From Oscillospiraceae bacterium (GTDB lineage Bacteria > Bacillota > Clostridia > Oscillospirales > CAG-272): a stretch of DNA of 64,000 nucleotides. The DNA is taken from assembly GCA_015064805.1 (NCBI GenBank), contig SVRN01000001.1, positions 58,302 to 122,301 of the forward strand. Direction: 5' to 3'. The translations under genes and the position numbers were made by a program. The notes under the pieces were generated by a model. That model saw nothing but the letters and a program-made list of their open reading frames with translations. It ran no database searches and was not told the DNA's origin. Positions 373 through 32,582 of this stretch are shown here, in pieces; within the stretch, counting starts at the first letter, position 1, and every line of letters begins with the position of its first letter.

Positions 373-380
373 AATTCACC

Positions 381-4504: not shown

Positions 4505-4536
4505 AATTAATATTACCTCTTAATTCATTAACTAAA

Positions 4537-6618: not shown

Positions 6619-6669
6619 AATCAGCCCTCCTTGAATTGAAAGATATGGTGGGAATTAAAATTATAAATT

Positions 6670-6698
6670 ATTATAGCACATAATTTGATCATTTGCAA
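6670..6698 (-). promoter_or_regulatory. Sigma-A-type promoter of the TIR operon
   Basis: The minus strand reads TTGCAA (6693-6698), a 17-nt spacer, then TGc-TATAAT (the -10 hexamer at 6670-6675). It lies about 50 nt upstream of the 6618 start in an AT-rich spacer. Confidence 0.55.
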
Positions 6699-6848
6699 CA
6701 AAATATTTGAAATTTATACGGTTTTATGTATAAATTTGATATATTAGCGTATAAGTGGATATTATCATAATTGCGCACCGACCGTGCCGGGTTCTCGCAG
6801 GCGCGAAAACGGTAATTCCACGGGAACTGTCAGGAGAAAGATTTATTA

Positions 6849-6877
6849 TTGACAATTTTTGTCAATTCATGTATAAT
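6849..6877 (+). promoter_or_regulatory. Consensus sigma-A promoter for the downstream transporter; the -35 is embedded in a palindrome
   Basis: TTGACA (6849-6854), 17 nt, TATAAT (6872-6877). The palindrome TTGACAAtttTTGTCAA (6849-6865) overlaps the -35. Confidence 0.5.
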
Positions 6878-6938
6878 TGAAAACGCAAAGCACATCGGCC
6901 GAGTTCAATGCCGATATGAATGTGACAGAGGAGAGATT

Positions 6939-12042: not shown

Positions 12043-13014
12043 ATGCGTGCGCTACGCTTGATTGCGCTGATACTGGCGGCCTTGTGCTGTATCATTCCGC
12101 TGTCTGCCTGCCGAAAGGGTCCGGCAGAGGAGGACGCCCCCGTCTATCTTGAGATGAATACCGACTACCCCACGCCCGATTCGCTTCCGGACGGTCAGGG
12201 AAAGAGAGTCAAGGTCATTCTTTTGCTCGGGCAGAGCAACGCGACGGGATGCTCGATCAACGAATATCTCAAAAAGGGATTGGACGAGCGGCAATACGAA
12301 CGATACGCGGCGGGATTTGAGTCGGTGCTGATCAACTACTGTCTGGACGATCATAACGCGACCTCCGATGGTGCGTTTGTCAAGGTAGACTTGACCTGCG
12401 GCGCGACGGACGGCTTTTTCGGGCCCGAGGTAGGCATGGCAGAGGTGCTGTCGGCCGCCTATCCCGATGAGACGGTCATGATCATCAAATACACCATGTC
12501 GGGCTATTCGCTTCACCATCATTGGCTCCGCCAAGGGGAACGGGGGTCGATATACGACGCGTTTTTGTCCTTTGCCAAGCTGCATATGGACTATCTTTTG
12601 AGTAAGAATTACGACGCGAGAATCGGTGCGATCTGCTGGATGCAGGGTGAATCGGATACGACCGACTTCAAGGCGTCGCACTATTACGACAATCAGACGG
12701 CCTTCGTATCCTATCTCCGCGAGGACTTGGCGCCTTATGCAGAGGAGGGAGGCATCTACTTTATCGATGCCGGTATCTCCAACAGCCCCTACTGTGAGCC
12801 TGCTTATCCTGCCATCAATGAGGCCAAAGTGCGATTTTCTGCCGATTCGCCGCAAAATCTGTATTTTTCGACCATCGACGCCGGATTTACGGTGCATCTG
12901 GAGCCCATCGGAGACCCTGATTGGGGACATTACGATGCGCTCAGCGAGTTGCGTCTCGGACAGATGTTTGGACACTATATCGTGCAGTCGTATCAGATGA
13001 GGACCAACGAATAA
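12043..13014 (+). CDS. SASA/DUF303-type carbohydrate (sialate) O-acetylesterase, lipoprotein
   Basis: The protein has an LLLGQSNATG catalytic-Ser block. Its signal peptide carries the lipobox LSAC (MRALRLIALILAALCCIIPLSAC). The start was set at the ATG at 12043, which follows an AAAGGAGGG RBS. Confidence 0.75.
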   Translation: MRALRLIALILAALCCIIPLSACRKGPAEEDAPVYLEMNTDYPTPDSLPDGQGKRVKVILLLGQSNATGCSINEYLKKGLDERQYERYAAGFESVLINYCLDDHNATSDGAFVKVDLTCGATDGFFGPEVGMAEVLSAAYPDETVMIIKYTMSGYSLHHHWLRQGERGSIYDAFLSFAKLHMDYLLSKNYDARIGAICWMQGESDTTDFKASHYYDNQTAFVSYLREDLAPYAEEGGIYFIDAGISNSPYCEPAYPAINEAKVRFSADSPQNLYFSTIDAGFTVHLEPIGDPDWGHYDALSELRLGQMFGHYIVQSYQMRTNE

Positions 13015-13069
13015 AGCGGCGCAGACGGTCGACTGTGGCTTGGTCTTCATCTTGAAATAATGACAGAAT

Positions 13070-13092
13070 CAAACGTTCAAAAGGGCGCCAAT
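13070..13092 (+). terminator. Rho-independent terminator
   Basis: AAAGGGCGC caat GCGCCCTTTT. Confidence 0.6.
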
Positions 13093-13206
13093 GCGCCCTT
13101 TTGGGCGTTTGGGGGCAAAAAACAGAATTTGTTACAAATTTCACAAATTCGGGCAAAATTTTCTTCTCTTGCCGTACAAAAAGACGAATAATCGTGCGGC
13201 AAAGCA

Positions 13207-13235
13207 TTGACAAAGCAACGGAAATGTTATATAAT
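13207..13235 (+). promoter_or_regulatory. Consensus sigma-A promoter of the rnf operon
   Basis: TTGACA (13207-13212), 17 nt, TATAAT (13230-13235). Confidence 0.55.
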
Positions 13236-13343
13236 TAGTGTGTTATATTAGGTGTGTACCAAGGAAGACTTGCGATTTTTTCGTTAAGTCTTGCTTTTGT
13301 TGCTGGGCAACTTTACACATAAATGCAGAAAGGTAGTTGAACT

Positions 13344-14660
13344 ATGGCTTTTTCTCTTCACGGGGTTCACGTACCCCATAGAAAGCATACGCAAGACCTG
13401 CCCGCCGCCCGTATGGCCCCTCCAAGCACGGTGACCATTCCCATGTCTATGCACATCGGCGCTCCTGCTCGCCCCGTCGTCAAGGCGGGCGACCTTGTCA
13501 AGGTTGGTACGCTGATTGCCGAGGCAGGTGGCGTGGTATCCTCGCCCATTTACGCCAGCGTATCGGGTAAGGTGACCAAGCTTCCCAATATTTTACTGTC
13601 CAACGGAACGACGGTGCCAGCGGTGGTCATTGAGTCCGACGGCGAAATGACACCCGACGAAACGCTGACGCCCCCCGTCGTGGATTCGCGCGATAGCTTC
13701 ATCGAGGCCGTCCGCGCAAGCGGTGTCGTCGGCCTTGGCGGCGCGGGATTCCCGACGCACGTTAAGCTCAACGTCGATCCTGCCCGTATCGAATATCTGA
13801 TCGTCAACGGCACCGAGTGCGAGCCTTACATCACGAGCGATACCTATACCATGAACGAGCGCCGCGAGGATATGGCCTATGCGATCGAGGCACTCAAGGC
13901 GCATCTCGGCATCAAGAATATCATCATCGGCGTTGAATCCAATAAAAAGAAAGCGATCGCAAGCATGATGCAGCTCATGAACGAAACGTGCAAGGGCTGT
14001 ACCGTCAGCGTCAAGGTGCTTCCTTCCATCTACCCGCAGGGCGGTGAGAAGGTGCTGATCTACCACGCGACGGGACGCGTCGTGCCCGTGGGTAAATTGC
14101 CCATCGACGTCGGCTGTATCGTGATCAACTGCACGACGCTTGCCGCCATCGGCACCTATCTCAAGACGGGCATGCCGCTGGTCGAAAAATGCGTGACGGT
14201 AGACGGCGGCGCGATCAAGAACGCCCAGAACGTCATCGTTCCCATCGGCACGTCGATTTCTGATCTGTTTGAATTTTGCGGCGGCCTGACCGTCGAGCCC
14301 GCCAAGGTGCTTTACGGCGGCCCCATGATGGGTATTTCGATCCCCGACGTGAGCCTGCCCGTCATGAAGAACACCAACGCGGTGCTGGCACTGACAAAAA
14401 AGGAAGCGGCGCTTCCCAAGACGACTGCCTGCATCCGTTGCGGCTCCTGCACCAACACCTGTCCCTTCGGTCTGGCCCCCGCGATGTTCGCTAAGGCCTA
14501 CGAAAAGAAGGACGCGGTCATGCTCGAGGAGTTGGGCATCAACGCTTGTATGGAATGTGGCTGCTGCAGCTACGTTTGCCCCGCAAACCGTCCCTTGGTA
14601 CAGACCAATAAGCTCGCCAAGATTTTGGTGAGAGAAGAAAAAGCAAAGGAGGACAAGTGA
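13344..14660 (+). CDS. rnfC: Rnf complex subunit C
   Basis: GLGGAGFPTHVKL and two C-terminal CxxCxxCxxxCP ferredoxin motifs. It is the first gene of the rnfCDGEAB order. Confidence 0.9.
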   Translation: MAFSLHGVHVPHRKHTQDLPAARMAPPSTVTIPMSMHIGAPARPVVKAGDLVKVGTLIAEAGGVVSSPIYASVSGKVTKLPNILLSNGTTVPAVVIESDGEMTPDETLTPPVVDSRDSFIEAVRASGVVGLGGAGFPTHVKLNVDPARIEYLIVNGTECEPYITSDTYTMNERREDMAYAIEALKAHLGIKNIIIGVESNKKKAIASMMQLMNETCKGCTVSVKVLPSIYPQGGEKVLIYHATGRVVPVGKLPIDVGCIVINCTTLAAIGTYLKTGMPLVEKCVTVDGGAIKNAQNVIVPIGTSISDLFEFCGGLTVEPAKVLYGGPMMGISIPDVSLPVMKNTNAVLALTKKEAALPKTTACIRCGSCTNTCPFGLAPAMFAKAYEKKDAVMLEELGINACMECGCCSYVCPANRPLVQTNKLAKILVREEKAKEDK

Positions 14661-14662
14661 GT

Positions 14663-15598
14663 ATGAATCATCAATTGAAGCTCTCGGTTTCTCCTCATAT
14701 CCATAGCGGACGCTCGACGGCGGGCATCATGCGCGACGTGCTGATCGCGCTGGCACCTGCAACGATCGCGGGTGTGGTCATTTTCGGCTGGCGCGCGCTG
14801 TTGGTCGTGGCCATCTGTGTTGCTTCCAGCGTCGGCTTTGAAGCACTTTACAATCTGATCGTCAAGCGCGAGCAGACGGTCGGCGATCTCAGCGCCGCCG
14901 TGACGGGGCTATTGCTGGCACTCAACCTGCCTGCCAACGTTCCGCTCTGGCAATGCGTCGTCGGCTCGCTGTTTGCCATTATCGTTGTCAAGGCACTCTT
15001 CGGCGGCATTGGCTGTAACCTCGTTAACCCCGCCATTACGGCTCGCGTCTTTATGCTGATCGCCTTCGGCTCGATGGCAACGCAGGCTTATCCCACGATT
15101 GTGGATACCGTATCGGGTGCAACGCCTCTGGCGCAGATCATGCAGGGCTCGACGCCCTCTCTGACCGATCTTTTGCTGGGTCTGCACGGTGGCTCCATCG
15201 GTGAGACCTGCTCGGTAGCTCTGCTGCTTGGCGGTGCGTATCTGCTCATCCGCCGCGTCATCAGCTGGCATCTGCCCGTTGCCTTTGTCGGAACGACCTT
15301 CCTGTTCTCCTTCTTTATGGGCGGCATGGACGCGATGTACGCGCTGTCGATGGTACTGTCGGGCGGTCTTCTGATCGCGGCCTTCTTCATGGCGACCGAC
15401 TACGTCACCTCGCCCGCAACGGCCTGGGGCAAGATCATCTTTGGCGTTGGCGCGGGTCTGATCACCTGCATGATCCGCTATTTCGGTATATATCCCGAGG
15501 GTGTTTCGTTTGCCATTCTGCTGATGAACATTCTGACGCCCTACATCGACTCCTGGACGAAGCATAAAGTGTTTGGCAGAGGAGGGAAGAGAGCATGA
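14663..15598 (+). CDS. rnfD: Rnf complex subunit D
   Basis: This is a polytopic membrane protein with a GATPL motif and the FMATDYVTSP flavinylation-site region. The ATG at 14663 lies 10 nt after GGAGG; the track GTG at 14657 lies only 4 nt after it. Confidence 0.85.
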   Translation: MNHQLKLSVSPHIHSGRSTAGIMRDVLIALAPATIAGVVIFGWRALLVVAICVASSVGFEALYNLIVKREQTVGDLSAAVTGLLLALNLPANVPLWQCVVGSLFAIIVVKALFGGIGCNLVNPAITARVFMLIAFGSMATQAYPTIVDTVSGATPLAQIMQGSTPSLTDLLLGLHGGSIGETCSVALLLGGAYLLIRRVISWHLPVAFVGTTFLFSFFMGGMDAMYALSMVLSGGLLIAAFFMATDYVTSPATAWGKIIFGVGAGLITCMIRYFGIYPEGVSFAILLMNILTPYIDSWTKHKVFGRGGKRA

Positions 15599-16752
15599 AG
15601 CAATCGATAAAAAGCACGCTGGTGCTGTTCCTTATCTGTGCCGTTATGGCCGTTCTTCTGGCGCTGACCAACGCATTCACCGCACCGAAGATTCAAGCGA
15701 ATCTTGAGGCGGCCGCCAACGAGGCGCTCCTGGTCGTCATGCCTGAGGGCAAGGATTTCAAAAAGATGGATCTGTCCTCCTACACGCTTCCTGCCACGGT
15801 TACCGAGGCGTATAGCGAAGCAGGCGGCGGCTACGTTATTACGATCACCACGTCGGGCTACGGCTCGAACTTCATTATCATGTGCGGCGTTTCCGCTGAC
15901 GGTAAGGTGACGGGCACTACCTGCCTGTCCTCCTCCGAAACGCTGGGACATGAAAAGACCTATGGTGCGAACTTCATCGGCAAGGACGCGGCAGGTGTGG
16001 ACGGTGTGGATACCATCTCGGGTGCCACCAAGACCACGGCCGCGTATAAGAGCGCGATGAAGGACGCTATCAACGCCGCTATCATCCTCGGCGGTGGCTC
16101 AGTCGATATCCGTACCGAGGAGGAGATCCTCGCGGAAAATCTGGCAACCGCACTGCCCGAGGGCAACGGCGAGTTCACCAAGCTGTTCATCGTTGAGGTC
16201 ATCGAGGGCATCGATGCGGTCTATAACGCCAACAACGCCGCAGGCTACGTTTACGTGATCGGCGAGCAGTTTATCGGCGTTCCTGCAGGCACGACGCCCG
16301 AAAACGCGACCGTCGCGACGGCTCACGCTATCCTGACGGCCACGACGACCACCGAGGTCGATCTGAGTGCGTACGAGGGTCTGCCGTCGGCGCTCATTTC
16401 CGCAAGCAAGACGCAAACGGGCAACTATATTCTCAACCTGAAGGGTGCCGGCTACGGCATCAACGGCGGTAACGAATATCATCCTGCCTCGGGCGAGTAC
16501 ATCTACATTCGCGTATCCATGACGCCGGACGGTAAGATCATTGACTGCCTGACCTACGCGCAGAGCGAGACGCCCAACATCGGCTCGGCTTGTGCCGATG
16601 AAAAATTCTATTCGCAGTTCGTCGGTAAAACCGAGGAAACATATGATAATATCGACGCCATCGCAGGCGCGACCCTGACGACCGACGGCTACAAGAAAGC
16701 AATTTTGCGTGCGTTTGAATCGGTCAAAATTCTGGAAGGAGGTGCAAAGTAA
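15595..16752 (+). CDS. rnfG: Rnf complex subunit G, unusually long (385 aa) with two FMN-binding modules
   Basis: It has an N-terminal membrane anchor and two motifs, DTISGATKTT and DAIAGATLTT. An ATGA overlap joins it to rnfD. Confidence 0.85.
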   Translation: MKQSIKSTLVLFLICAVMAVLLALTNAFTAPKIQANLEAAANEALLVVMPEGKDFKKMDLSSYTLPATVTEAYSEAGGGYVITITTSGYGSNFIIMCGVSADGKVTGTTCLSSSETLGHEKTYGANFIGKDAAGVDGVDTISGATKTTAAYKSAMKDAINAAIILGGGSVDIRTEEEILAENLATALPEGNGEFTKLFIVEVIEGIDAVYNANNAAGYVYVIGEQFIGVPAGTTPENATVATAHAILTATTTTEVDLSAYEGLPSALISASKTQTGNYILNLKGAGYGINGGNEYHPASGEYIYIRVSMTPDGKIIDCLTYAQSETPNIGSACADEKFYSQFVGKTEETYDNIDAIAGATLTTDGYKKAILRAFESVKILEGGAK

Positions 16753-17456
16753 TGAAGAATAACGGCAATCTGGCTATTTTGCTCAAGGGTATTCTCAAGG
16801 AAAACCCCGTATTCGTTCTCATTCTCGGTACCTGCCCCACGCTTGCTATGACCAAAAACGTGGGCGACGCCTTCGGTATGGGCCTTGCGGCGCTGGCCGT
16901 TCTGCTTTGCTCCAACGTTCTGGTCTCCTTGCTTCGCAAGGTCATTCCCGATACGGTGCGCATCCCCTGCTATATCGTTATCATCGCAAGCTTCGTTACC
17001 ATCGTTCAGATGATCGTCAAGGCGGAGTTGCCCGAGCTGGATAAAAACCTGGGCGTGTTCTTGCCGCTGATCACGGTCAACTGTATCATTCTCGGCCGCG
17101 CTGAGATGTTTGCAGGTAAGAATTCCGTGGGTAAATCTGCGCTGGATGGTATCGGCATGGGCCTTGGCTTTACGCTGGCACTGGTGCTGATGTCCACCGT
17201 CCGCGAGGTGCTGGGCAACGCTTCCTTTGCAGGCCACGCTATCGCCTTTCTTGAGCCCTACAAGATCAAATTTCTGGTCGAGGCTCCCGGCGGTATGTTG
17301 GTTTACGGTTGCCTGATCGCGCTGGTTTACGTGATCACCAAGGGCAAAGCACCGCTGAAGAAGAGCTTCTCCTGCGCGGGCTGCCCCAATGCGGCCAACT
17401 GTCACACGGCTTGCACCGAGCTTCCTGCCGACTCCGGTGAGAAAGGAGATGCGTGA
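16752..17456 (+). CDS. rnfE: Rnf complex subunit E
   Basis: NPVFVLILGTCPTLA and LPLITVNCIILGRAE are conserved RnfE/NqrD blocks. Confidence 0.9.
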   Translation: MKNNGNLAILLKGILKENPVFVLILGTCPTLAMTKNVGDAFGMGLAALAVLLCSNVLVSLLRKVIPDTVRIPCYIVIIASFVTIVQMIVKAELPELDKNLGVFLPLITVNCIILGRAEMFAGKNSVGKSALDGIGMGLGFTLALVLMSTVREVLGNASFAGHAIAFLEPYKIKFLVEAPGGMLVYGCLIALVYVITKGKAPLKKSFSCAGCPNAANCHTACTELPADSGEKGDA

Positions 17457-17458
17457 AA

Positions 17459-18058
17459 ATGGAACTGTTTGAATCCTTGATCGTCATTCTCTTAGGCTCC
17501 GTACTGGTCAACAACTACGTATTGGCGCAGTTTATGGGCATCTGCCCCTTCCTGGGCGTATCCAAAAAGCTGGACCAGGCTACGGGCATGGGCATTGCCG
17601 TTACGGCCGTGATGCTTCTGGCAACTGCCGTTACCTGGCCCATTCAGTATTTCCTTTTGGACAAGGTCGGCCTTGGCTATATGCAGACCATCGTCTTCAT
17701 TTTGGTCATCGCTTCTCTTGTACAGATGCTTGAGCTTCTGCTCAAAAAATTCTCTCCCGCCCTGCATAAGGGTCTGGGCGTGTATCTCCCCTTGATCACC
17801 ACCAACTGCGCCGTTCTCGGCGTTGCCATCAACAACATCGACGAGGGTTATACCTTCCTTGAATCCATGGTCAACTCGCTGGGCGTCGGTCTCGGCTTCC
17901 TGCTTGCTATGGTGCTGTTCTCGGGTCTTCGCTCCCGCATTGACGAGACCAACGTCCCCAAGCCCTTCCGTGGGCTGGCCGTCACCTTGATCGCCGCGTC
18001 CTTTATCTCGCTGGCCTTTATGGGCTTTGCGGGTATCGTGGATGCGCTGTTCGCGTAA
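17459..18058 (+). CDS. rnfA: Rnf complex subunit A
   Basis: VNNYVLAQFMGICPFLGVS and LPLITTNCAVLG are conserved RnfA/NqrE blocks. The start could be the ATG at 17459 or the GTG at 17453. Confidence 0.88.
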   Translation: MELFESLIVILLGSVLVNNYVLAQFMGICPFLGVSKKLDQATGMGIAVTAVMLLATAVTWPIQYFLLDKVGLGYMQTIVFILVIASLVQMLELLLKKFSPALHKGLGVYLPLITTNCAVLGVAINNIDEGYTFLESMVNSLGVGLGFLLAMVLFSGLRSRIDETNVPKPFRGLAVTLIAASFISLAFMGFAGIVDALFA

Positions 18059-18070
18059 GGAGGTGCCGAT

Positions 18071-18901
18071 ATGATGGATATTTTAATTGCGCTTCTCGTC
18101 GTTGGTGCGGTTGCGCTGGTTGCAGGCGTCCTGCTTGCTCTCATTTCTCACTTTTTCAGCGTTCCTGCGGACGAAAAGGTCAAGGCCGTCCGTGCCTGCC
18201 TGCCCGGTGTTAACTGCGGTGCCTGCGGCTATAAGGGCTGTGACGACTACGCCGTTGCCGTAGCAGAGGGAACGGCGAAGCCCAATCTCTGCGTTCCCGG
18301 TGCGGAATTTACCGCCAAGGAGCTGGGCGAGGTGCTCGGTATCGAGGTTGAAGCTCCTGCCGACGTCGTCGCTTACGTGCATTGCAACGGAAACTGCGAG
18401 GCAACCACCAAAAAGGCGGTCTACGACGGTATTTCTACTTGTAAAGCGGCCGCCATGCTGTACGGCGGTCCCGACGCTTGCCGCTTTGGTTGCGTTGGAC
18501 TTGGCGATTGCGCCGCCGCATGCCCTTCGAATGCGATTTGCATGAAGGACGGCATCGCGCACGTGGACACCAGCCGTTGCATTGGCTGTGGTCTTTGCCA
18601 GACGATCTGCCCCAAGCATATCATCTCGATGGTGCCCCAGGAGACCGAGGCCGTCGTTGCCTGCAGCAACGAGGACAAGGGCGCGGACGCCCGCAAGGTC
18701 TGCAAGAACGCCTGCATTGCCTGCAGAAAGTGCGAAAAGGCTTGTCCGCAGGGTGCGATCAGCATCGTGAATAATCTGGCGAGAATTGATTATGATAAAT
18801 GCGAAGGCTGCGGTATTTGTGACGACGTTTGTCCCACGGGCAGCATGAAGCAGGTCGTTTTCCCCGATCTGACCGAGCAATTTAAGGAATCTGATATATG
18901 A
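18071..18901 (+). CDS. rnfB: Rnf complex subunit B (polyferredoxin)
   Basis: It has an N-terminal anchor, a CxxCGxxGC cluster, and several CxxCxxCxxxCP motifs. An AGGAGG RBS precedes the start. Confidence 0.9.
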   Translation: MMDILIALLVVGAVALVAGVLLALISHFFSVPADEKVKAVRACLPGVNCGACGYKGCDDYAVAVAEGTAKPNLCVPGAEFTAKELGEVLGIEVEAPADVVAYVHCNGNCEATTKKAVYDGISTCKAAAMLYGGPDACRFGCVGLGDCAAACPSNAICMKDGIAHVDTSRCIGCGLCQTICPKHIISMVPQETEAVVACSNEDKGADARKVCKNACIACRKCEKACPQGAISIVNNLARIDYDKCEGCGICDDVCPTGSMKQVVFPDLTEQFKESDI

Positions 18902-19317
18902 ATCAAAACAATCAAGCTATGCCCACCGCCAAAAGCGGTGGGCGTAGATTCCGAAACGACGTAATATTGATTGCCGCCTTGCTTGCCATCGTCGCGCTTG
19001 CAGGGCTGTTCGTTTTTCTTTTCCGACAGCCGGGCGACACGGTCGTCGTGACGATCGACGGTGAGCATTTCGCGACCTATTCGCTGAATGAAAACGTGAC
19101 CGTCCCCATCCACACGGGAGAGGACGGCGAGCAGCTCAACCTCCTGATCATTCAGGACGGTCAGGCCTACGTGCAAAAGGCCAGCTGTCCCGACGGAATT
19201 TGTGCCGCGCACCGACCGATCAAGCGTGAGGGCGAATCTATCGTCTGCCTGCCGCACCGCGTGGTTATCACGGTGCATAGCACGTCCGCGCAGGACGAGC
19301 CTGACATCGTCACCTAA
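18898..19317 (+). CDS. NusG domain II (DUF1312)-containing membrane-anchored protein
   Basis: It has a TM anchor followed by ...SCPDGICAAHRPIKREGESIVCLPHRVVITV, the characteristic CPdxiC...ivClP block. An ATGA overlap joins it to rnfB. Confidence 0.7.
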   Translation: MNQNNQAMPTAKSGGRRFRNDVILIAALLAIVALAGLFVFLFRQPGDTVVVTIDGEHFATYSLNENVTVPIHTGEDGEQLNLLIIQDGQAYVQKASCPDGICAAHRPIKREGESIVCLPHRVVITVHSTSAQDEPDIVT

Positions 19318-19329
19318 GGAGGGCAGGGC

Positions 19330-19833
19330 ATGAAGCATCAAAGCAAAAAGATCGCTTTTTTAGGGCTGTGCGCCGGCGTGGCACTTGTCCTGGCCTACGT
19401 GGAGGCGCTGTTGCCGCCATTGTACGCCGCCGTTCCCGGCATCAAGCTGGGGCTTCCCAATATTGCCATCATTTTTATTCTTTATCGTTTTGGTTTGCGT
19501 GAGGCGGCGGCGGTGTCCTTGATCCGTATCGTGGCTGTGACGCTGCTGTTCGGCAATCCCATGACCTTTGCTTACAGCGTGGCGGGGGCCTTTCTCAGCC
19601 TGCTCGTCATGACGGTCTTGCGCAAGCTGGACTTGTTTTCCATCGTCGGCGTCAGCGTGGCGGGGGCGGTGTTCCATAACGTCGGGCAGATCCTGACGGC
19701 TATGGTTTTGCTGGGCACGGCCGAGCTTGGCTACTACCTGATCGTACTGGCCGTCACGGGCACGATCTCAGGTATTTTGGTCGGCCTTTGCGGCGCGATG
19801 GCAGTCAAGCGTGTTTTTATCAAGAATATATGA
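19330..19833 (+). CDS. Gx transporter family protein (heptaprenyl diphosphate synthase component I-like membrane protein)
   Basis: This is a small five-TM protein with LPNIAIIFILYRFGLREAAAVSLIRI...LLFGN and NVGQIL motifs. An AAGGAGGG RBS precedes the start. Confidence 0.7.
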   Translation: MKHQSKKIAFLGLCAGVALVLAYVEALLPPLYAAVPGIKLGLPNIAIIFILYRFGLREAAAVSLIRIVAVTLLFGNPMTFAYSVAGAFLSLLVMTVLRKLDLFSIVGVSVAGAVFHNVGQILTAMVLLGTAELGYYLIVLAVTGTISGILVGLCGAMAVKRVFIKNI

Positions 19834-19911
19834 AAAAAGTTGGTTAATCTATTGACAAAGTGTCATCTATAGGGTAAAATGAATTACCTAATTACAACAA
19901 AGGAGTAATTT

Positions 19912-20895
19912 ATGAAAAGAATTCTCAGCGTGATTCTCAGTATCATCATGGTGCTTGGCCTTATGGCCTTTGTCAGCTGCGAAAAGAAGCCCGAGACCTT
20001 GAAGTTCGGTCTGGGCGTTTATACCGACGTTTCCAAGGCAAGCAATGCCGATGGCGAGGCCAACGGTCAGGGCAAGGCTGCGATCACCGCAGCGGCTATT
20101 ACCGTTGATGCCGATGGCAAGATCGTTGCCTGCGAGCTGGATACCGCGGACAATACCGTGGCTTACACCGGCGAGGGTAAGGCGATTGCCAACGATTCCT
20201 TCAAGACCAAGTATGAGTTGGGCAAGGGTTACAACATGGTCACCTACGGCGGTGCTACCAAGGAATGGTTCGAGCAGGCGGATGCGTTTGAGGCGCTGGT
20301 CGTCGGCAAGACGCTGGCCGAAATCAAGGCGCTGGTTGCCGAGGGTAACAAGGGCAACAGCGACGTTGTCAGCGCAGGCTGCACGATCATGATCCACGAG
20401 TTCGTGTTTGCCATTGAAAAGGCGTTCAACAATGCCGCCGCATCTAACGTTACTTCTGCGCATACTTTGAAGCTGGGCCTGCACACCGAGCAGACCTGCC
20501 AGGATGCCGACGGTGACAAGAACGGCTCCAACCAGATTGAGACCACCATCGTTGCCGCTGCCGTTGACGCTGACGGTAAGGTCGTTGCCGCTGCCAGCGA
20601 TTGCGTACAGGTGAAGTTCACCTTCGATGCAACGGGCGCTTCCAAGTATGACCTGACCAAGAAGGTTTCCTCCAAGCGTGAGGCAGGTGCCAATTACGGT
20701 ATGGTCAACTACGGTGGCGCTGCCAAGGAGTGGTTTGAGCAGGCGGATGCTTTCAATGCCGCATGCGTTGGCAAGACCGCAAGCGAGATTGCCGCTATGA
20801 TGGGCGCGGACAACTACGGTAACACCGAGCTGCAGAGCGCAGGCTGCACCATTCTGGTCAACGGCTTCGTCAAGGCAGTTTCCAAGCTGAAATAA
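19912..20895 (+). CDS. Lipoprotein made of two tandem ~150-aa repeats, each resembling a divergent FMN-binding domain
   Basis: The signal peptide carries a lipobox (LMAFVSC). Repeat 1 reads ...YNMVTYGGATKEWFEQADAFEALVVGKTLAEI...DVVSAGCTIMIHEFVFAIEKA. Repeat 2 reads ...YGMVNYGGAAKEWFEQADAFNAACVGKTASEI...ELQSAGCTILVNGFVKAVSK. Confidence 0.7.
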   Translation: MKRILSVILSIIMVLGLMAFVSCEKKPETLKFGLGVYTDVSKASNADGEANGQGKAAITAAAITVDADGKIVACELDTADNTVAYTGEGKAIANDSFKTKYELGKGYNMVTYGGATKEWFEQADAFEALVVGKTLAEIKALVAEGNKGNSDVVSAGCTIMIHEFVFAIEKAFNNAAASNVTSAHTLKLGLHTEQTCQDADGDKNGSNQIETTIVAAAVDADGKVVAAASDCVQVKFTFDATGASKYDLTKKVSSKREAGANYGMVNYGGAAKEWFEQADAFNAACVGKTASEIAAMMGADNYGNTELQSAGCTILVNGFVKAVSKLK

Positions 20896-20904
20896 TTGAA
20901 ATGA

Positions 20905-20931
20905 AAAATGGGAGGCTCGCCTCCCATTTTT
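20905..20931 (+). terminator. Rho-independent terminator
   Basis: AAAATGGGAGG ctcg CCTCCCATTTTT. Confidence 0.7.
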
Positions 20932-20938
20932 CAAATGG

Positions 20939-22006
20939 ATGAAACGTATGAAAAAACGATTGTTGGCAGGGCTGTTGGCGCTGGGAATGCTATGGACTCT
21001 CGTGTCGCTGACCGCTTGCGAAAAAAAGCCAAGTAAATATACAGCCTATTCCTTCGACTATTTTGACACCGTGACGACCATCGTCGGGTATGCGAAAAGC
21101 CAAGAGGAATTCGACCGCGTGTCGAGCCAGGTGTTGCGTCAGCTGGAGGAATACCACAAGCTGTTTACCATTTACCATCGCTTTGACGGTATGGAAAACC
21201 TTTGCACCATCAACGAGCTCAAGGATGGCGCGCATCGCACCGTGACGGTGGATCGCCGTATTATCGATATGTTGTTGTACGCCAAGCAGATGTACGTCAA
21301 AACGAACGGCTTGGTGAATATCGCGATGGGAAGCGTGCTGTCCATCTGGCACGACTATCGCGAGGAGGGGATGGACGAGCCGTGGAACGCGAAGCTGCCT
21401 CCTATGGACAAGCTGACCGAGGCGGCCAAGCACACCGACATTGATCTGCTGGTCATTGACGAGCAGATCAACACGGTAACGCTGACCGATCCCGCCATGA
21501 CGTTGGACGTCGGCGCGATCGCCAAAGGGTACGCTGTGGAAATGGTCGCAAGATCGCTGGAGGAGCAGGGCATCACGGGCTACGTCATCAACGTGGGCGG
21601 TAACGTCCGTACCGTTGGAACCAAGGGCGATGGCGACGCGTGGATGGCGGGTATCGAAAACCCATCGGAGGAGGATGAAGAACCGTATCTGGCCTATCTT
21701 TCCCTTGCGGGGGAGTCGCTGGTGACCAGCGGCTCGTATCAGCGCTATTACGTGGTGGACGGCAAGCGGTATCATCATATCATTGACCCTGCGACGCTGA
21801 TGCCCTCGGAAGGTTTTTTGTCCGTTTCGATCGTTTGTCAAAGCTCGGCCGATGGCGACGCTCTCTCGACGGCGCTGTTTTGCATGACGCTTGAGCAGGG
21901 GCGCTCGCTTATTGAGTCGCTCCCCGATACCGAGGCTATGTGGGTGCTGCAGAACGGCACCAGAATCACCTCGAGCGGGTTTGACCAGTATACGACTCAA
22001 CCATAA
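20939..22006 (+). CDS. apbE: FAD:protein FMN transferase (ApbE family) lipoprotein
   Basis: It has a lipobox (LVSLTAC) and the ApbE blocks DVGAIAKGYA and TSGSYQRY...HHIIDP. Confidence 0.85.
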   Translation: MKRMKKRLLAGLLALGMLWTLVSLTACEKKPSKYTAYSFDYFDTVTTIVGYAKSQEEFDRVSSQVLRQLEEYHKLFTIYHRFDGMENLCTINELKDGAHRTVTVDRRIIDMLLYAKQMYVKTNGLVNIAMGSVLSIWHDYREEGMDEPWNAKLPPMDKLTEAAKHTDIDLLVIDEQINTVTLTDPAMTLDVGAIAKGYAVEMVARSLEEQGITGYVINVGGNVRTVGTKGDGDAWMAGIENPSEEDEEPYLAYLSLAGESLVTSGSYQRYYVVDGKRYHHIIDPATLMPSEGFLSVSIVCQSSADGDALSTALFCMTLEQGRSLIESLPDTEAMWVLQNGTRITSSGFDQYTTQP

Positions 22007-22010
22007 GGCA

Positions 22011-22037
22011 AAAAGGACGTCGGCTGACGTCCTTTTT
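22011..22037 (+). terminator. Rho-independent terminator
   Basis: AAAAGGACGTC ggct GACGTCCTTTTT. Confidence 0.7.
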
Positions 22038-22137
22038 GTTATTTCTTGCTGTGGATAAATACAAGCTTGCTCTTGCATATCGGGCGGGAGTGTGGTATAA
22101 TGAAGCCGTAGAATTAACCGAAAGCGAGGACAAGGAT

Positions 22138-23079
22138 ATGTACGCCATCGGCTTTGATATCGGCGGCACCAAATGCGCCGTTTCCGTAGGAGAATTGAAT
22201 CAGGGAAGCATTTGCGTTCTCGGACGCCTGGAGGTTCCGACCACCACACCGCACGAAACGCTGGATGCACTTCTGCCTCAGGCCATTGAATGGAAGAAGC
22301 AATACGGCGCGCTTGCGGCGGGTATCAGCTGTGGCGGACCGCTGGACAGCGCGACGGGCGTGATCGTGTCGCCCCCCAATCTGCCCTTGTGGCACGGCTT
22401 TGCCATCGTGGATTATATCAAAGAAAAGAGCGGCCTTGTTTCGGTGCTGGAAAACGACGCCAACGCCTGTGCGGTGGCCGAGTGGAAATTTGGCGCGGGG
22501 CAGGGTACGCGCAACATGGTCTTCTTTACCTTTGGTACGGGACTTGGCGCGGGATTGATCCTTGACGGCAAGCTGTATAGCGGTACGGGCGGCAACGCGG
22601 GTGAGTTTGGACATATCCGCCTTGCCAAGACGGGCCCCGTGGGCTACGGCAAGGAGGGCTCGTTCGAGGGCTTTTGCAGCGGCGGCGGTATTGCCCGCCT
22701 GGCCGTTATGATGGCCAAGCGCCGCAAGAGCATGCCGAAGTGCATCGCCGATATGGGTGGCTACGAGAGCGTGACCACCAAAAAGCTGGCAGAGGCCGCC
22801 TTCGCGGGCGATCGCTTTGCCAAGCAGGTGTTCCAAAAGAGCGGTGAGATGCTCGGTCGGGGCTTGTCTCTCGTCATCGACATCGTCAATCCCGAGCGGA
22901 TCGTCATCGGCGGCGTGTTTATGCGCTCGGGTGAGCTTCTGATCCCCGCCATGCAGAAGGTCATCGACCGCGAGGCGCTGAGCGACAGCGCGCGCGTGTG
23001 CGAGATCGTACCCGCAAAACTCAGTGAAAACGTTGGCGATATTGCCGCTTTGGCGATCGCAGAAGGAGCTATCGTATGA
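22138..23079 (+). CDS. ROK-family sugar kinase
   Basis: The protein starts MYAIGFDIGGTKCAVSVGE, and has ENDANACAVAEWKFGAG and GEFGHI blocks. The start was moved from the track position (22036) to the ATG at 22138. Confidence 0.8.
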   Translation: MYAIGFDIGGTKCAVSVGELNQGSICVLGRLEVPTTTPHETLDALLPQAIEWKKQYGALAAGISCGGPLDSATGVIVSPPNLPLWHGFAIVDYIKEKSGLVSVLENDANACAVAEWKFGAGQGTRNMVFFTFGTGLGAGLILDGKLYSGTGGNAGEFGHIRLAKTGPVGYGKEGSFEGFCSGGGIARLAVMMAKRRKSMPKCIADMGGYESVTTKKLAEAAFAGDRFAKQVFQKSGEMLGRGLSLVIDIVNPERIVIGGVFMRSGELLIPAMQKVIDREALSDSARVCEIVPAKLSENVGDIAALAIAEGAIV

Positions 23080-23734: not shown

Positions 23735-23780
23735 AAAGTCCACCGAAGCGTGTGAAAGCGCAAGCGGTGGACTTTTTTTT
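23735..23780 (+). terminator. Terminator hairpin with a T8 tract
   Basis: AAAGTCCACCG ...19 nt... CGGTGGACTTTTTTTT. Confidence 0.6.
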
Positions 23781-24789
23781 ATTTGGATGCGGGGATTTGG
23801 TTCTCCAGTGCCAAAACAAACTCGGTCAGCGCGGCGTCGTATTGCTCGGTGTAGACGACGCGGAGCTTGGAGTGCTCACCGCCCTCGAACCAGACGAGCT
23901 TTTTGTGCTCGGAGGGACAACGGTCGAAAAGCACGGTCGTGCGCGTGGGCAGGGAATATTTGTCTGCCGTGCCGTGGAGCATCAGAAGGGGCCCGCGGTA
24001 GGTGTGGATCACGTCACCGGGGCCGCTTTTGAAATCGTAGCTCGTGCTACGCTTCATGCAGGCGTTGATCATGCCGGCGATAAAGGTCGGTTTTTTCAGC
24101 TCCTTCATGTGCAGATAATAGCTCTCGTAAAAATCGCGGTACATGCCGTCTGCTACGAGGCCGATCAGATAATCGGGACACTCGGGAGAGGTCATGGCGT
24201 ACAGACCGCAGGCAGAGCCGATGCAGACACCGTGCAAAAGGATCGAGCGGACGCCCCGTTCGTCGTGCAGGTGGCGCGCCCAGGCGAGCACGTCGCGATG
24301 CTCTGCGTGACCGAGGGTGACGTACTTGCCCTCGCTCTCGCCGTGTCCGCGCTGGTCGATGCAAAGCACGTTGTAGCCCAGCGATCTGTAGGGCATGGCG
24401 TAGTAATAGGAGTAGGTCAGGCTGTCCGTGCGCCCGGGGATGAAGATCACGGCGCGGTCAAAGCCAAAATCATAGTATTCACCGCACAAGCGGAGGCCGT
24501 CGTTGACGATATGTACGTCGTGCTTACAATCGATATTCTCTTCCATCCAGACGCGACCGTCCGCTACCATTTGAAGAGACAGCGGATCGTCGTGCATGGA
24601 AGTACGCGACCACATGGCCTTGGTGTTGCGCACCAGCGTGCTGCGGTATATGATATAAGCGGTCAGCCAAAGAAGGGGGTAGAGCAGAACCAGATGGACT
24701 GCGACGAAGATCAGCAGGACACGGCCTGCCGTTTCCCAACCCGACAGCGCGGCGGCCGCAAGGCAAGTAAAAGGTGTAGTAAATTGCAT
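23779..24789 (-). CDS. Membrane-anchored alpha/beta hydrolase (lysophospholipase/S33-like)
   Basis: It has an N-terminal TM segment, a QRGHGESEG block and a nucleophile-elbow-like HGVCIGSACG. It is the last gene of the degV-to-hydrolase operon. Confidence 0.7.
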   Translation of the reverse strand: MQFTTPFTCLAAAALSGWETAGRVLLIFVAVHLVLLYPLLWLTAYIIYRSTLVRNTKAMWSRTSMHDDPLSLQMVADGRVWMEENIDCKHDVHIVNDGLRLCGEYYDFGFDRAVIFIPGRTDSLTYSYYYAMPYRSLGYNVLCIDQRGHGESEGKYVTLGHAEHRDVLAWARHLHDERGVRSILLHGVCIGSACGLYAMTSPECPDYLIGLVADGMYRDFYESYYLHMKELKKPTFIAGMINACMKRSTSYDFKSGPGDVIHTYRGPLLMLHGTADKYSLPTRTTVLFDRCPSEHKKLVWFEGGEHSKLRVVYTEQYDAALTEFVLALENQIPASK

Positions 24790-24795
24790 CGTTTG

Positions 24796-25434
24796 TTACT
24801 TTCCTGACTTTTTTTGTTGGAGCTGTTCTTGCAGCTCAAGGCACTTTTGATAGACCTGCGCGTTGAGCGTCATGATCTCCTCTCGGGAGGGATTCTCGCT
24901 CGTGATAGCGTCGCCAAGGTAGATAGGCTCGCCGATGATCAGATGAACGCGCTTGAAGAGGCCGTAGTTGCCGTCGGTAATGACGGGAATGATGGGAACG
25001 TCCGCCCGCAGAGCGATGAGAACGTAGCTTGGCTTGAAGTCGTGCATTCGCCCGTCGGTCGTGATACTTGCCTCGGGATAGATCTGCACCAAGCCGCCCT
25101 TTTCGAGCACCTTGACGCTGTCGTCCATGAAGCGCAGGTCGGTGGCCAGCTTGTCGGACTCGATCCCGCCGAAGAATTTCATGCCCCAAAGAAAGAAGCG
25201 TCCTTGCTTGGTGCCGCGCTGAGGCCAGTAGACCACGTGCAGCTTGCGGAAGGGGAAGAGAAAGAGATTGACCATATAGTCAAACACGCTGAAGTGGTTG
25301 GACACGATCAGCGCGCCGCCGCGGATACGGCGTCCTTGCTTTTTTCGGTTTTCGTAATACGTTTTTCGCTTGAAGAGCATGAGCTGAAAGGGCCAGCCCG
25401 TGATCAGAGCCACCCAACGAAAAAATTCATGCAT
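24796..25434 (-). CDS. Lysophospholipid acyltransferase (PlsC/LPLAT family)
   Basis: It has the HxxxxD motif (SNHFSVFD) and an IYPEAS (FPEG-like) block. Confidence 0.8.
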   Translation of the reverse strand: MHEFFRWVALITGWPFQLMLFKRKTYYENRKKQGRRIRGGALIVSNHFSVFDYMVNLFLFPFRKLHVVYWPQRGTKQGRFFLWGMKFFGGIESDKLATDLRFMDDSVKVLEKGGLVQIYPEASITTDGRMHDFKPSYVLIALRADVPIIPVITDGNYGLFKRVHLIIGEPIYLGDAITSENPSREEIMTLNAQVYQKCLELQEQLQQKKSGK

Positions 25435-27364
25435 GGTGTGATGTCAGTTCCTTTATCTGTTTTTCAAGATCGTTGATCGAGTAGGTCAACGTTTCGCTGT
25501 CAAAGGGAAGGCGAATACCAAAGCGCTCGTCGATATGCCCGACGAGAGTGTAGTAATCCAAGCTGTCTCCGCCCAGATCGGAAAAGAAATTGGCGGTGTC
25601 CGAGATGGTAGAGGCGTCGATCTCCAGCGTCCGCGCGATCAGCTCACGCAAAATCTCCTTGATTGGGCTGTCTTGCTCCGTTTGCGACGCATCACGGTCT
25701 TCCGGGCGATCAAACAGAGTGATCGCCCCCGAACGGATGGCGTGCGCGAGATAGGTGCGGCTGATCTTGATGTCGCTCTCGCGCAGCAGCGGATCATAGG
25801 TGAACTGAACGCGGCGGACGCGCAGGGCGTGGGGAAGATCGGCGTTATCCTCATTCATGTGATTTTGCAGCTCTTGCCACTCACCGTCCGTAATGGCCTT
25901 ATCAACGCAAACCAGCAGCATCAGCAGACCGCTGTCGGGATCGGCCAGCACCTCAAAGGCCTTGGCGTTTGGCAAATGGAAGGCGGCGCGGATCATGTCG
26001 GGGTTGATATTCTCACCGTCCTCGCCGATGATCACGTCGCTGACGCGGCCTTCAAACACATAGCGGCCGTCCTCCTCGGCGCGAACGATGTCGCCCGTGT
26101 CGAACCATTCGCTTTGTGGTTTGACAATACCGTCGACGATCATGTGGTGGCATCCCGCACAGCCCTTGACCAGCAGATGTCCCTGCTCGTCCGTACGGTA
26201 CTCGACAAAGGGGAAGGGACGGCCGATGGTACCGCGCAGACGGGTAATGAAGTCGTGCGACAGCTCGACCGACGTAATGCCGATCTCGCTCATGCCGTAG
26301 CCGTTGCACAGGGGATAACCCAGCGCGTTGATCAGCTGCAGGGCACTCGGCTCAATTCCACTGCCGCCCGTGATGCAAAAGCGCACGCTTTCGCCAAACA
26401 GCTTGGCGCGTACGTCGTACAGCATCCGCGCGGCCAGTTTTCGGCCTGTCTTGGGGAAGGCGCGTTGCAGCCTGATGGACAGATTCAACGCGCGACGGAA
26501 TTTTTGTTGCGTTTTCTCGTCCTGCTTGGCGATCGTCTTTATCACGCTTTTTTCGATGCCGTGCCAGAGAAGGGGAACGGCAAAGACGTGCGTGACCTCG
26601 TGCCGACGGACGGCGCGAAGCAGTGCGTCGGGGGCAGGCGAGGGCGGAAAAACAAGCGCGGCACCCAGAAAGGCGTACCACAAATACATGGCGGAAAAGC
26701 CGAAGACATGGTACAGCGGCAAAAAGGCAAGCTGCTTGAATTGTCCGTCGTAGCGCTCGATCAGTGCAGGATTTTCCTTGATCAGCGCGGGCGTGCCGCA
26801 CAGCTGCTCAACAAAATTTTCACCGCGATAGACGCAGATCTTTTGTTGCATGGTCGTGCCGCCCGTCGTCAGCGCCAGCTCGTTGCCAAACGGTGCGTCT
26901 GTAGGCAGAGGCGTTGCATCTGCCGCAAGCGCGTCGAGCGTGGCAAAGGTCAAAACGCTTGCGTCAAGCGAGATCACCTCGTCACAGCACAGCACCGTGT
27001 CTGCGCTCAGCGTGCGCAGGACCGACGCGGTAAAATCGAGCGGCTGACGGGTGTTGATCAGATAGGGGCGGTTTCCGCTGCGCAGAATGGCCCAGAAAAG
27101 CAGGATCCAACGCTCGGAATTGCCGCCGTACAGACCGATATATTCGTCCGTCTTGCCGCATTTAGAGGCAAGGGCGGCGGCCAGACGCTCGATTTTTTCT
27201 TGAGCCTCGGCGTTTGTCATTTTGTGGATTCTGAGCATGGTGGACGTTTCGCAGAACACCCGATCGCCGTGGTCAAAAATGATGCGATAAACGTCCTTAA
27301 ATTGTCGATTGGACGTGCGCAATGCGCGCACGTCCTCTGACAGCTGTTGATGGTATTGTTTCAT
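25427..27364 (-). CDS. Acyl-AMP ligase (ANL adenylating enzyme) fused to a C-terminal acyl carrier domain
   Basis: The adenylation cores are TTGGTTMQQK, GYGMSE, WFDTGD and GRVSDVII-x-x-GENI. The C-terminal phosphopantetheine site is FSDLGGDSLDYY. Confidence 0.8.
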   Translation of the reverse strand: MKQYHQQLSEDVRALRTSNRQFKDVYRIIFDHGDRVFCETSTMLRIHKMTNAEAQEKIERLAAALASKCGKTDEYIGLYGGNSERWILLFWAILRSGNRPYLINTRQPLDFTASVLRTLSADTVLCCDEVISLDASVLTFATLDALAADATPLPTDAPFGNELALTTGGTTMQQKICVYRGENFVEQLCGTPALIKENPALIERYDGQFKQLAFLPLYHVFGFSAMYLWYAFLGAALVFPPSPAPDALLRAVRRHEVTHVFAVPLLWHGIEKSVIKTIAKQDEKTQQKFRRALNLSIRLQRAFPKTGRKLAARMLYDVRAKLFGESVRFCITGGSGIEPSALQLINALGYPLCNGYGMSEIGITSVELSHDFITRLRGTIGRPFPFVEYRTDEQGHLLVKGCAGCHHMIVDGIVKPQSEWFDTGDIVRAEEDGRYVFEGRVSDVIIGEDGENINPDMIRAAFHLPNAKAFEVLADPDSGLLMLLVCVDKAITDGEWQELQNHMNEDNADLPHALRVRRVQFTYDPLLRESDIKISRTYLAHAIRSGAITLFDRPEDRDASQTEQDSPIKEILRELIARTLEIDASTISDTANFFSDLGGDSLDYYTLVGHIDERFGIRLPFDSETLTYSINDLEKQIKELTSHHA

Positions 27365-27373
27365 AGCAGATTT

Positions 27374-31536: not shown

Positions 31537-31565
31537 TTGACGGAAAGGGGAGAGAGTGTTATAAT
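31537..31565 (+). promoter_or_regulatory. Sigma-A-type promoter with extended -10
   Basis: TTGACG (31537-31542), 17 nt, TGt-TATAAT (31560-31565). Confidence 0.5.
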
Positions 31566-31597
31566 AGTATCATCCAAGTGAAGTACGGAGGCATCGT

Positions 31598-32545: not shown

Positions 32546-32549
32546 AACA

Positions 32550-32580
32550 AAAAGATCACGGCAATTTGCCGTGATCTTTT
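32550..32580. terminator. Bidirectional terminator between convergent genes
   Basis: AAAAGATCACGGCA att TGCCGTGATCTTTT. Confidence 0.7.
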
Positions 32581-32582
32581 TG

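Follow-up and report, generated by a model that had tools for sequence, protein, structure and literature searches.

Downstream of a complete rnfCDGEAB operon in an Oscillospiraceae bacterium (assembly GCA_015064805.1, CAG-272) lie four further genes on the same strand, encoding an EetA-like protein, an EetB-like protein, a two-repeat surface lipoprotein and ApbE, the FAD:protein FMN transferase (FAD, flavin adenine dinucleotide; FMN, flavin mononucleotide). They occupy positions 18898-22006 of the stretch analysed here, which is referred to as the window and comprises 64,000 nucleotides (nt), positions 58,302-122,301 of the forward strand of contig SVRN01000001.1. On the best available explanation, to which we give a probability of roughly 0.55, these genes form a conserved cassette that both makes and supplies proteins carrying covalent flavin at the outer membrane face, and that is docked 3' of rnfCDGEAB in uncultured gut Oscillospirales. 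The association of EetA, EetB and ApbE with Rnf is already known, as are multi-flavinylated RnfG proteins and, from one paper, a domain class termed FMN-bind2. The new element is the lipoprotein.

The rnf operon and the cassette that follows it

The eetA-like ATG lies on the stop codon of rnfB in an ATGA overlap, which couples the start of the one gene to the end of the other (Table 1). Its product is a single-pass membrane protein with one N-terminal hydrophobic helix and an extracytoplasmic NusG_II domain. The eetB-like product is a polytopic membrane protein resembling the substrate-binding (S) subunits of energy-coupling factor (ECF) transporters, with a weak additional match to ECF_trnsprt in Pfam. 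The lipoprotein has a signal peptide whose lipobox cysteine, Cys23, is invariant in 14 aligned homologues, followed by two repeats in tandem, which share 45% identity (E 2e-36), and a lipobox, LTAC, is likewise visible in ApbE. A preliminary description of this DNA, made from the letters alone, had already named the overlap and this succession of proteins, and both stand. It had also suggested, with some hesitation, that EetA and EetB belong to the families of the two small genes. That suggestion is borne out by Rivera-Lugo 2023 (mBio, PMC9973259), which equates EetB with PF07456 and whose Data Set S1 labels NusG_II (PF07009) proteins EetA.

All six Rnf subunits (C, D, G, E, A and B) are present, with flavinylation motifs in RnfD (VDTVSGAT, read from the translation) and in RnfG. 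The latter is 385 amino acids (aa) long, where 180-210 is usual, and contains two FMN_bind stretches. Residues ~1-165 are the canonical N-terminal part of RnfG, with the motif VDTISGAT, and are followed by an extra C-terminal ~215 aa with the motif IDAIAGAT.

The remark that ndh2 and dmk genes are missing here also proved correct: none of them turned up when the larger open reading frames (ORFs) of the window were scanned with Pfam, or when every window ORF of 80 aa or more was searched by phmmer from Ndh2, DmkA and DmkB seeds. No member of the FmnA/ECF-T family was found among the window ORFs scanned with Pfam, a scan that reached ~55.5 kb, and in an Rfam scan positions 12900-22200 matched neither a riboswitch nor any other RNA family (E up to 0.1).

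Table 1. Coordinates of the rnf operon, the downstream cassette and their transcription signals in the window
Feature	Position (nt)	Strand	Remarks
Promoter upstream of rnfC	13207-13235	+	consensus sigma-70-type, TTGACA-17-TATAAT, 12/12
rnfCDGEAB, complete	13344-18901	+	Pfam, NCBIfam
rnfC	13344-14660	+	
rnfD	14657-15598	+	
rnfG	15595-16752	+	
rnfE	16752-17456	+	
rnfA	17453-18058	+	
rnfB	18071-18901	+	
eetA-like gene	18898-19317	+	139 aa; Pfam NusG_II PF07009, E 2.4e-26
eetB-like gene	19330-19833	+	167 aa; Pfam Hpre_diP_synt_I PF07456, E 2.2e-37
Promoter-like site	19852-19880	+	TTGACA-17-TAAAAT, 11/12; 31 nt upstream of lipoprotein ATG
Two-repeat surface lipoprotein gene	19912-20895	+	327 aa; unannotated family, very probably related to FMN_bind (FMN-bind2-like)
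Lipoprotein repeat 1	19993-20445	+	residues ~28-178
Predicted flavinylation residue T158	20383-20385	+	in SAGCT
Lipoprotein repeat 2	20455-20892	+	residues ~182-327
Predicted flavinylation residue T313	20848-20850	+	in SAGCT
GC-rich hairpin and T-run	20902-20933	+	intrinsic terminator or attenuator, between lipoprotein gene and apbE
apbE	20939-22006	+	355 aa; lipoprotein FAD:protein FMN transferase, PF02424, E 4.5e-68
Strong intrinsic terminator	22007-22040	+	15-pair stem and T-run, end of cluster

The lipoprotein family and its relation to FMN_bind

Close homologues of the lipoprotein number more than 1,774, all of them named hypothetical and all from metagenome-assembled genomes (MAGs) of Clostridia. 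An exhaustive search puts the family at 1,332 clusters at 50% identity, with proteins of two, four or six repeats; at one locus a 210-aa single-repeat paralogue follows the two-repeat gene (L086:9067-9819). The sole solved structure with sequence similarity to the family is PDB 2kzx_A ('Uncharacterized protein', 131 residues), which is matched at E 7.6e-8 by the single sequence and at E 2.9e-8 by a 77-sequence profile. What aligns is the helical half of the repeat; SAGCTI of the family falls on DAISGATI of 2kzx, and a shared signature, Y-x-M...EW-x-EQA...[SA]G[AC]T-I, extends over ~80 residues. Unlike the window lipoprotein, 2kzx_A is a single domain with a canonical DAISGAT and passes Pfam FMN_bind, its aligned fragment scoring 25.6 bits against a cut-off of 22. 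When the repeat is compared by hhalign with each of the two RnfG domains the matches are weak (P 0.002 and 0.02) and the register is the same, AGCT falling on SGAT or AGAT. Furthermore, in three family members the two repeats are preceded by a fused canonical FMN_bind domain at the N terminus (E 1e-13 to 1e-15), and one of these, WP_249298697.1 of Feifania hominis, bears the name 'FMN-binding protein'. These comparisons point very strongly to the lipoprotein being a remote homologue of FMN_bind.

The window lipoprotein departs from the ApbE-substrate motif, D-x-x-[S/T]-G-A-[S/T]. Its repeats read DVVSAGCT and ELQSAGCT, in which the glycine at -2 and the threonine at 0, the flavinylation position, are retained. 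Among 321 repeat instances, 306 align without a gap here and 304 of these have T or S at the flavinylation position; the preceding residue is a cysteine in 246 repeats, a valine in 47 and an alanine in 9. The common form of the motif is [DE]-L-x-[SAT]-S-V-[TS], that of the window's own clade is x-A-G-C-T, and in the large SSVT subfamily the cysteine of AGCT is a valine. At this one position the family also holds canonical motifs, DLISGAT (P0240) and DLASGAT (P0187), and an intermediate, DLASSAT. A review of ApbE (PMC12052999) reports that A-to-V and G-to-A substitutions leave ~50% flavinylation and that D-to-A has a minor effect. The lipoprotein is probably flavinylated.

AlphaFold2 models the full lipoprotein as a packed two-domain protein, with a predicted local distance difference test score (pLDDT) of 96.5 and a predicted template modelling score (pTM) of 0.90; for a single repeat the values are 95.5 and 0.89. 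In each modelled repeat three long strands are followed by helices, and the motif lies in a loop before the last helix.

Several results speak against flavinylated FMN_bind-type repeats. No Pfam or NCBIfam family, FMN_bind included, is matched by the lipoprotein, and the Pfam FMN_bind model matches neither the whole protein nor either repeat even at E up to 10. Set beside D-x-x-[ST]-G-A-[ST], SAGCT has a cysteine and not an alanine at -1, one extra residue, and no aspartate at -6. Foldseek searches of the PDB with the full and single-repeat models found no FMN_bind structure and nothing at E <0.001; none is among the top 50 matches of the single-repeat model, despite the sequence link to 2kzx. 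Of the models with which the preliminary description had proposed to search, NusG_II, Hpre_diP_synt_I and ApbE were matched by proteins of the cassette, and FMN_bind was not matched by the lipoprotein. Its view of the lipoprotein repeats as FMN_bind-like is upheld by the homology with 2kzx_A and the threonine at the flavinylation position, but not by Pfam, by the SAGCT motif or by Foldseek.

The best of the weak Foldseek matches are to the iron-sulphur (Fe-S) scaffold IscU (8rmc_D, 5wlw_H and 3lvl_A; E 0.02-0.3, probability 0.75-0.97, TM 0.33-0.42). An IscU-like or Fe-S reading was rejected on account of the low TM values, of the single conserved cysteine per repeat, which is a valine in most of the family, and of the signal peptide, which as read from the sequence is a plain lipobox one without a twin-arginine motif. 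The lone cysteine and the plain signal peptide make an exported Fe-S protein unlikely.

Genomic settings of the cassette

A scan of one genome per species yielded 80 loci whose lipoproteins are 57-93% identical to that of the window, the closest being JAZLDE010000075.1 at 93%. All belong to uncultured Oscillospirales, labelled Acutalibacteraceae, Oscillospiraceae or 'Eubacteriales', largely from animal guts. When the ten window proteins were used as tblastn queries, the order rnfCDGEAB-eetA-eetB-lipoprotein-apbE was recovered in essentially every well-flanked locus, and a recurrence on this scale across species means that the ten-gene arrangement is not a product of chance. rnfG is of the long type in all 65 complete rnfG genes of this clade, and none of ndh2, dmkA and dmkB occurs in any of the 80 loci. 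Some loci vary from this: the lipoprotein gene and apbE may lie as a unit upstream of rnfC (L024, L033, L038, L040), an insertion may separate the two (L009, L018, L020, L066, L078), or no eetB is detected (L005, L014, L016, L017, L019). In these last loci eetA is kept, and only ~175 nt lie between it and the lipoprotein gene. At a further locus, L047:4367-7822 (a Ca. Flemingiibacterium MAG), a 390-aa two-domain rnfG-like gene stands directly before the lipoprotein gene and apbE, and the 4.3 kb preceding it contain neither eetA nor eetB nor a further rnf gene. Rearrangement, duplication of rnfG or an error of assembly could account for this.

Within the clade the lipoprotein gene is flanked by conserved transcription signals. 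In 74 related loci analysed, its promoter has a perfect TTGACA -35 element in every case and a near-consensus -10 element, matches the consensus at 10-12 of 12 positions overall, and has a spacer of 17 nt in 71 loci and 18 nt in the other three. It is located 30-62 nt ahead of the start codon, with a strong ribosome-binding site after it, and is also kept where the lipoprotein gene and apbE precede rnfC. A GC-rich hairpin with a T-run comes right after the lipoprotein stop codon in nearly all of 76 loci, and the stems differ while their pairing is retained. As the lipoprotein gene has a promoter and terminator of its own and apbE lies behind that terminator, we infer high expression of the former and low, read-through expression of the latter.

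More distant members of the family were collected by scanning metagenomes with an SSVT-subfamily alignment, which gave 80 further loci; genes were counted in them with hidden Markov models built from the window-clade proteins. apbE lies directly downstream of the lipoprotein gene in 57 of the 63 loci with at least 1 kb of downstream sequence. eetB was found directly upstream in 13, and anywhere in the locus in 17, of the 59 with at least 1.2 kb upstream. Four members at 35-37% identity to the window lipoprotein (P0210, P0216, P0217 and P0129) all have apbE adjacent and no rnf. Two tandem apbE paralogues follow the lipoprotein gene at L097:3621-5790 and L117:9113-11374, so that in some genomes one ApbE may be reserved for the non-canonical SSVT motif.

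Clustering of the remaining neighbour genes of the distant loci, together with a Pfam scan, brought out three recurrent upstream partners: an Ndh2-like protein of 620-700 aa, with Pyr_redox_2 and a long C-terminal (membrane) extension (19/80 loci), a DmkB-like polyprenyl synthetase (22/80) and a DmkA-like UbiA prenyltransferase (22/80). All three occur together in 17 of the 80. The order in such operons is ndh2-dmkB-dmkA-(eetA-eetB)-lipoprotein-apbE, so that in ~20 loci the lipoprotein family stands in the position held by PplA. In the two of these neighbourhoods that were inspected, L144 and that of the cultured Acetoanaerobium noterae DSL2 (L171), no canonical FMN_bind gene lies near the lipoprotein gene. 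A tblastn search of plasmids returned a single record, an unannotated Acetoanaerobium noterae replicon.

Linkage to rnf is not confined to one gene order, and four different ones were seen. In Feifania hominis the lipoprotein gene and apbE are divergent from rnfCDGEAB-eetA-eetB, and RnfG is a single-domain protein of 182 aa. At L090 the order is eetA-eetB-lipoprotein-apbE-rnfCDG, with an RnfG of 177 aa. The cassette (eetA-eetB)-lipoprotein-apbE is thus portable: it is found alone, behind ndh2-dmkB-dmkA and behind rnfCDGEAB, and its tightest link is that between the lipoprotein gene and apbE.

The genes around the cassette in the window are unrelated to it: a sialate esterase-like gene and genes for an M28 peptidase, a ROK kinase and a SIS-domain protein. 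Further away, positions 1-8000 have a GC content of 0.46-0.48, against ~0.56 elsewhere. They hold, on the minus strand, a gene for a 917-aa TIR_2-domain protein (381-3134) and two large ORFs without a Pfam match (3131-4504 and 4537-6618), and may be a defence island. Also on the minus strand, genes for an alpha/beta hydrolase, an acyltransferase, a protein with AMP-binding and PP-binding domains and a major facilitator superfamily transporter follow one another at 23779-28702, in what looks like a small acyl or lipid-modification cluster, and two overlapping ORFs of 425 and 432 aa at 31559-33881 have no Pfam match.

Electron input and comparison with known systems

In the mechanism proposed here, EetB, with ECF T and A subunits encoded elsewhere, would export FAD, a role ascribed by homology in this organism and by experiment only in Listeria; EetA would accompany it. 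The ApbE lipoprotein, as a member of its family, would then attach FMN from FAD to threonine residues. Its canonical targets would be RnfD (SGAT) and both domains of RnfG (SGAT and AGAT), and it would also flavinylate T158 and T313 of the lipoprotein, each in a derived SAGCT at the position of the SGAT threonine. The lipoprotein would be lipid-anchored at Cys23 and is probably abundant, since its gene has its own near-consensus promoter and conserved terminator and apbE stands behind the latter. It would work in the manner of PplA, passing electrons to extracellular acceptors or soluble flavins, a step suggested by the comparative context. The donor would be Rnf, plausibly by way of the extra C-terminal FMN domain of RnfG, with no Ndh2 or demethylmenaquinone step.

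These steps differ in strength. The lipoprotein is best read as an ApbE-flavinylated surface carrier resembling PplA because its family takes the PplA position in Ndh2/Dmk operons, and by this analogy the odds lean slightly towards a PplA-type electron carrier. That it is fed by Rnf is the weakest step and remains tentative, although it fits the docking beside rnf, the extra FMN domain of RnfG and the FMN_bind domain on the Feifania homologue. The complete route, a quinone-independent extracellular electron transfer (EET) from ferredoxin or NADH through Rnf and the extra RnfG domain to an abundant, AGCT-flavinylated lipoprotein, and from there to extracellular acceptors or flavin shuttles, is on balance doubtful. 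It would make the cassette an output module that can stand behind either Ndh2/demethylmenaquinone or Rnf, and the idea of the same module with a different electron input, which was put forward in the preliminary description, is supported by the comparisons made here.

The FAD-export step rests on published work. In Listeria, EetB (ECF-S-like) and FmnA (ECF-T-like) export FAD for FmnB/ApbE; EetB is the substrate-binding subunit of this exporter and is required for flavinylation of PplA (PMC9973259). According to the same study, eetB is colocalised with eetA in 3,328 genomes, with apbE in 2,169 and with Rnf genes in 572 Clostridia genomes, and is found beside ECF-T genes in only 291 of 4,214 genomes.

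There is much that tells against electron flow from Rnf to the lipoprotein. The authors of PMC9973259 read rnf clusters with eetA/eetB and apbE as a means of exporting FAD for the flavinylation of Rnf (RnfG and RnfD), and not as EET, and report a Listeria eetA deletion without an EET phenotype. FAD export and ApbE alone suffice for such maturation, which is thus a sufficient reading for three of the four cassette genes. An Acutalibacteraceae cluster with the order apbE-eetA-eetB-rnfCD has no lipoprotein gene, and therefore the presence of EetAB and ApbE beside rnf calls for nothing beyond Rnf maturation. ApbE and EetAB have a reason of their own to be near rnf. Most distant members of the family are not near it: of the 23 distant loci flanked by 6 kb or more on either side, none carries rnf, and the oldest and tightest partner of the family is apbE. 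By its signals, the lipoprotein gene appears to be transcribed as a separate unit within the cluster. The domain complementarity by which the window RnfG has an extra FMN domain and the lipoprotein none, the reverse of what is seen in Feifania hominis with its extra FMN_bind on the lipoprotein homologue, rests on three genomes. Finally, the literature searched contains no experiment on any member of the lipoprotein family.

The claim that the module is wired to Rnf is supported in part. Recurrence beside rnf holds throughout the 80-locus clade, and in Feifania hominis and L090 as well; it does not extend to the well-flanked distant loci, and the published reading is one of maturation. Independent transcription, which had been named as a point against a functional link, is indicated for the lipoprotein gene by its promoter and terminator. 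No terminator follows eetB in the window, and transcription begun at the rnf promoter may therefore run on into the lipoprotein gene as well. A requirement for the lipoprotein in Rnf maturation was ruled out by the rnf-eetAB-apbE clusters that lack it and by the lipoprotein-apbE pairs without rnf.

The chief rival explanation takes maturation to be the whole story, with eetA, eetB and apbE solely exporting FAD and flavinylating RnfG and RnfD, and with a separately transcribed lipoprotein that takes no electrons from Rnf. The latter could be flavinylated or flavin-binding and hold, scavenge or hand over flavin at the surface, or could be a carrier with another donor. The published interpretation, the Acutalibacteraceae cluster, the rnf-free pairs of most distant loci and the transcription signals would all be expected under it. 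What makes it unlikely is that the family occupies the PplA position in ~20 Ndh2/Dmk-type operons, with no other candidate substrate near in the two inspected, that it is linked to rnf in four gene orders, and that the RnfG of this clade carries an additional FMN domain unneeded by Rnf's own cycle, of a kind proposed to feed outside acceptors (PMC8238504).

Alternatively, the lipoprotein may be a degenerate FMN_bind relative that has lost its flavinylation, its conserved cysteine in AGCT serving some other purpose such as thiol redox chemistry or the binding of a metal or cluster. The non-canonical motif, the missing Pfam match, the cysteine in 246 of 321 repeats and the weak IscU matches could all be explained in this way, but those matches are below significance, and the cysteine gives way to valine in the large SSVT subfamily where threonine or serine is kept in nearly all repeats. 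Moreover, SGAT, SSVT and AGCT form a graded series of motifs at one and the same position, and apbE adjoins most of the distant genes, which leaves this explanation improbable. It is less credible still that the neighbourhood is meaningless and the lipoprotein gene lies beside apbE and rnf merely by descent within one clade. All 80 loci are from related uncultured Oscillospirales, and a shared gene order could be inherited; the pairing with apbE, however, holds down to ~35-40% identity, in unrelated flanking contexts, and persists through rearrangements. The explanation we retain is that of a conserved cassette for flavinylated outer-face proteins docked behind rnf.

Many gut Clostridia make no quinones and yet rely on Rnf, and little is understood of the route by which electrons reach the surface or outside acceptors in them. 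A surface flavoprotein of the PplA kind, encoded where the rnf operon ends, offers a concrete hypothesis for quinone-free electron transfer at the surface. If SSVT and AGCT are indeed flavinylated, the recognition motif of ApbE and the census of flavinylated proteins will need to be widened, by a family of 1,332 clusters that is invisible to Pfam and NCBIfam. If only maturation holds, the locus is an ordinary, published rnf accessory set with one uncharacterised lipoprotein. In the literature searched, no pathway from Rnf to a PplA-type protein is described. The same is true of the lipoprotein family as an ApbE partner, its SSVT and AGCT motifs and its PplA position in Clostridial Ndh2/Dmk operons, and of its docking onto rnf, with a strong promoter and terminator of its own, in a large clade of gut Oscillospirales.

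Among known systems, the flavin-based EET locus of Listeria monocytogenes (Light 2018, via PMC9973259) comprises Ndh2, DmkA, DmkB, EetA, EetB, FmnA, FmnB/ApbE and PplA. EetA (NusG_II), EetB (PF07456), an ApbE lipoprotein and a two-repeat lipoprotein adjoin in the window too, but without Ndh2, DmkA or DmkB, the cassette following rnfCDGEAB instead; FmnA/ECF-T was not seen among the window ORFs scanned. PplA/Cad has been modelled on 3O6U (FMN-bind1) and has SGAT motifs (PMC7074142), in two compact domains, whereas the repeats of the window lipoprotein are larger, carry SAGCT and have no Pfam match. Orthology with PplA was rejected on these grounds, the family profile missing 3O6U even at E up to 10. 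The analogy with PplA drawn in the preliminary description thus survives in operon position, which the family shares in the ndh2-dmkB-dmkA-(eetA-eetB)-X-apbE operons of other Firmicutes, and not as orthology. Pairs of cad (pplA) and apbE are reported to be confined to genomes lacking rnf (PMC7074142); the window lipoprotein family presents the opposite case, as it sits right beside rnf.

In its repeats and their modelled packing, the lipoprotein fits the FMN-bind2 class of Huang 2024 (mSystems, PMC11334425). These domains, described there briefly and with an exemplar, NTW96865.1, that has no InterPro entry, are ~150-160 aa long, occur in even numbers and form a beta-sheet-packed, pseudo-symmetric AlphaFold pair. 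Set beside them by description only, the family shares repeats of ~150 aa, repeat numbers of 2, 4 or 6 and a packed pair (pTM 0.90). It differs in having AGCT in the window and SSVT in the larger subfamily, where canonical double flavinylation is described for FMN-bind2, and that paper describes no association with rnf or with Ndh2/Dmk operons.

The colocalisation of EetB, ApbE and Rnf reported in PMC9973259 is the same rnf, eetA, eetB and apbE arrangement as that of the window. In the text consulted, no lipoprotein is mentioned as lying between eetB and apbE, and at least one Acutalibacteraceae cluster that it lists lacks one. Multi-flavinylated RnfG proteins were noted by Meheust 2021 (eLife, PMC8238504), who proposed, as speculation, a second path to extracytosolic acceptors. 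The window RnfG likewise has two FMN_bind domains; that study names no acceptor protein, whereas in the window a candidate acceptor is encoded three genes downstream.

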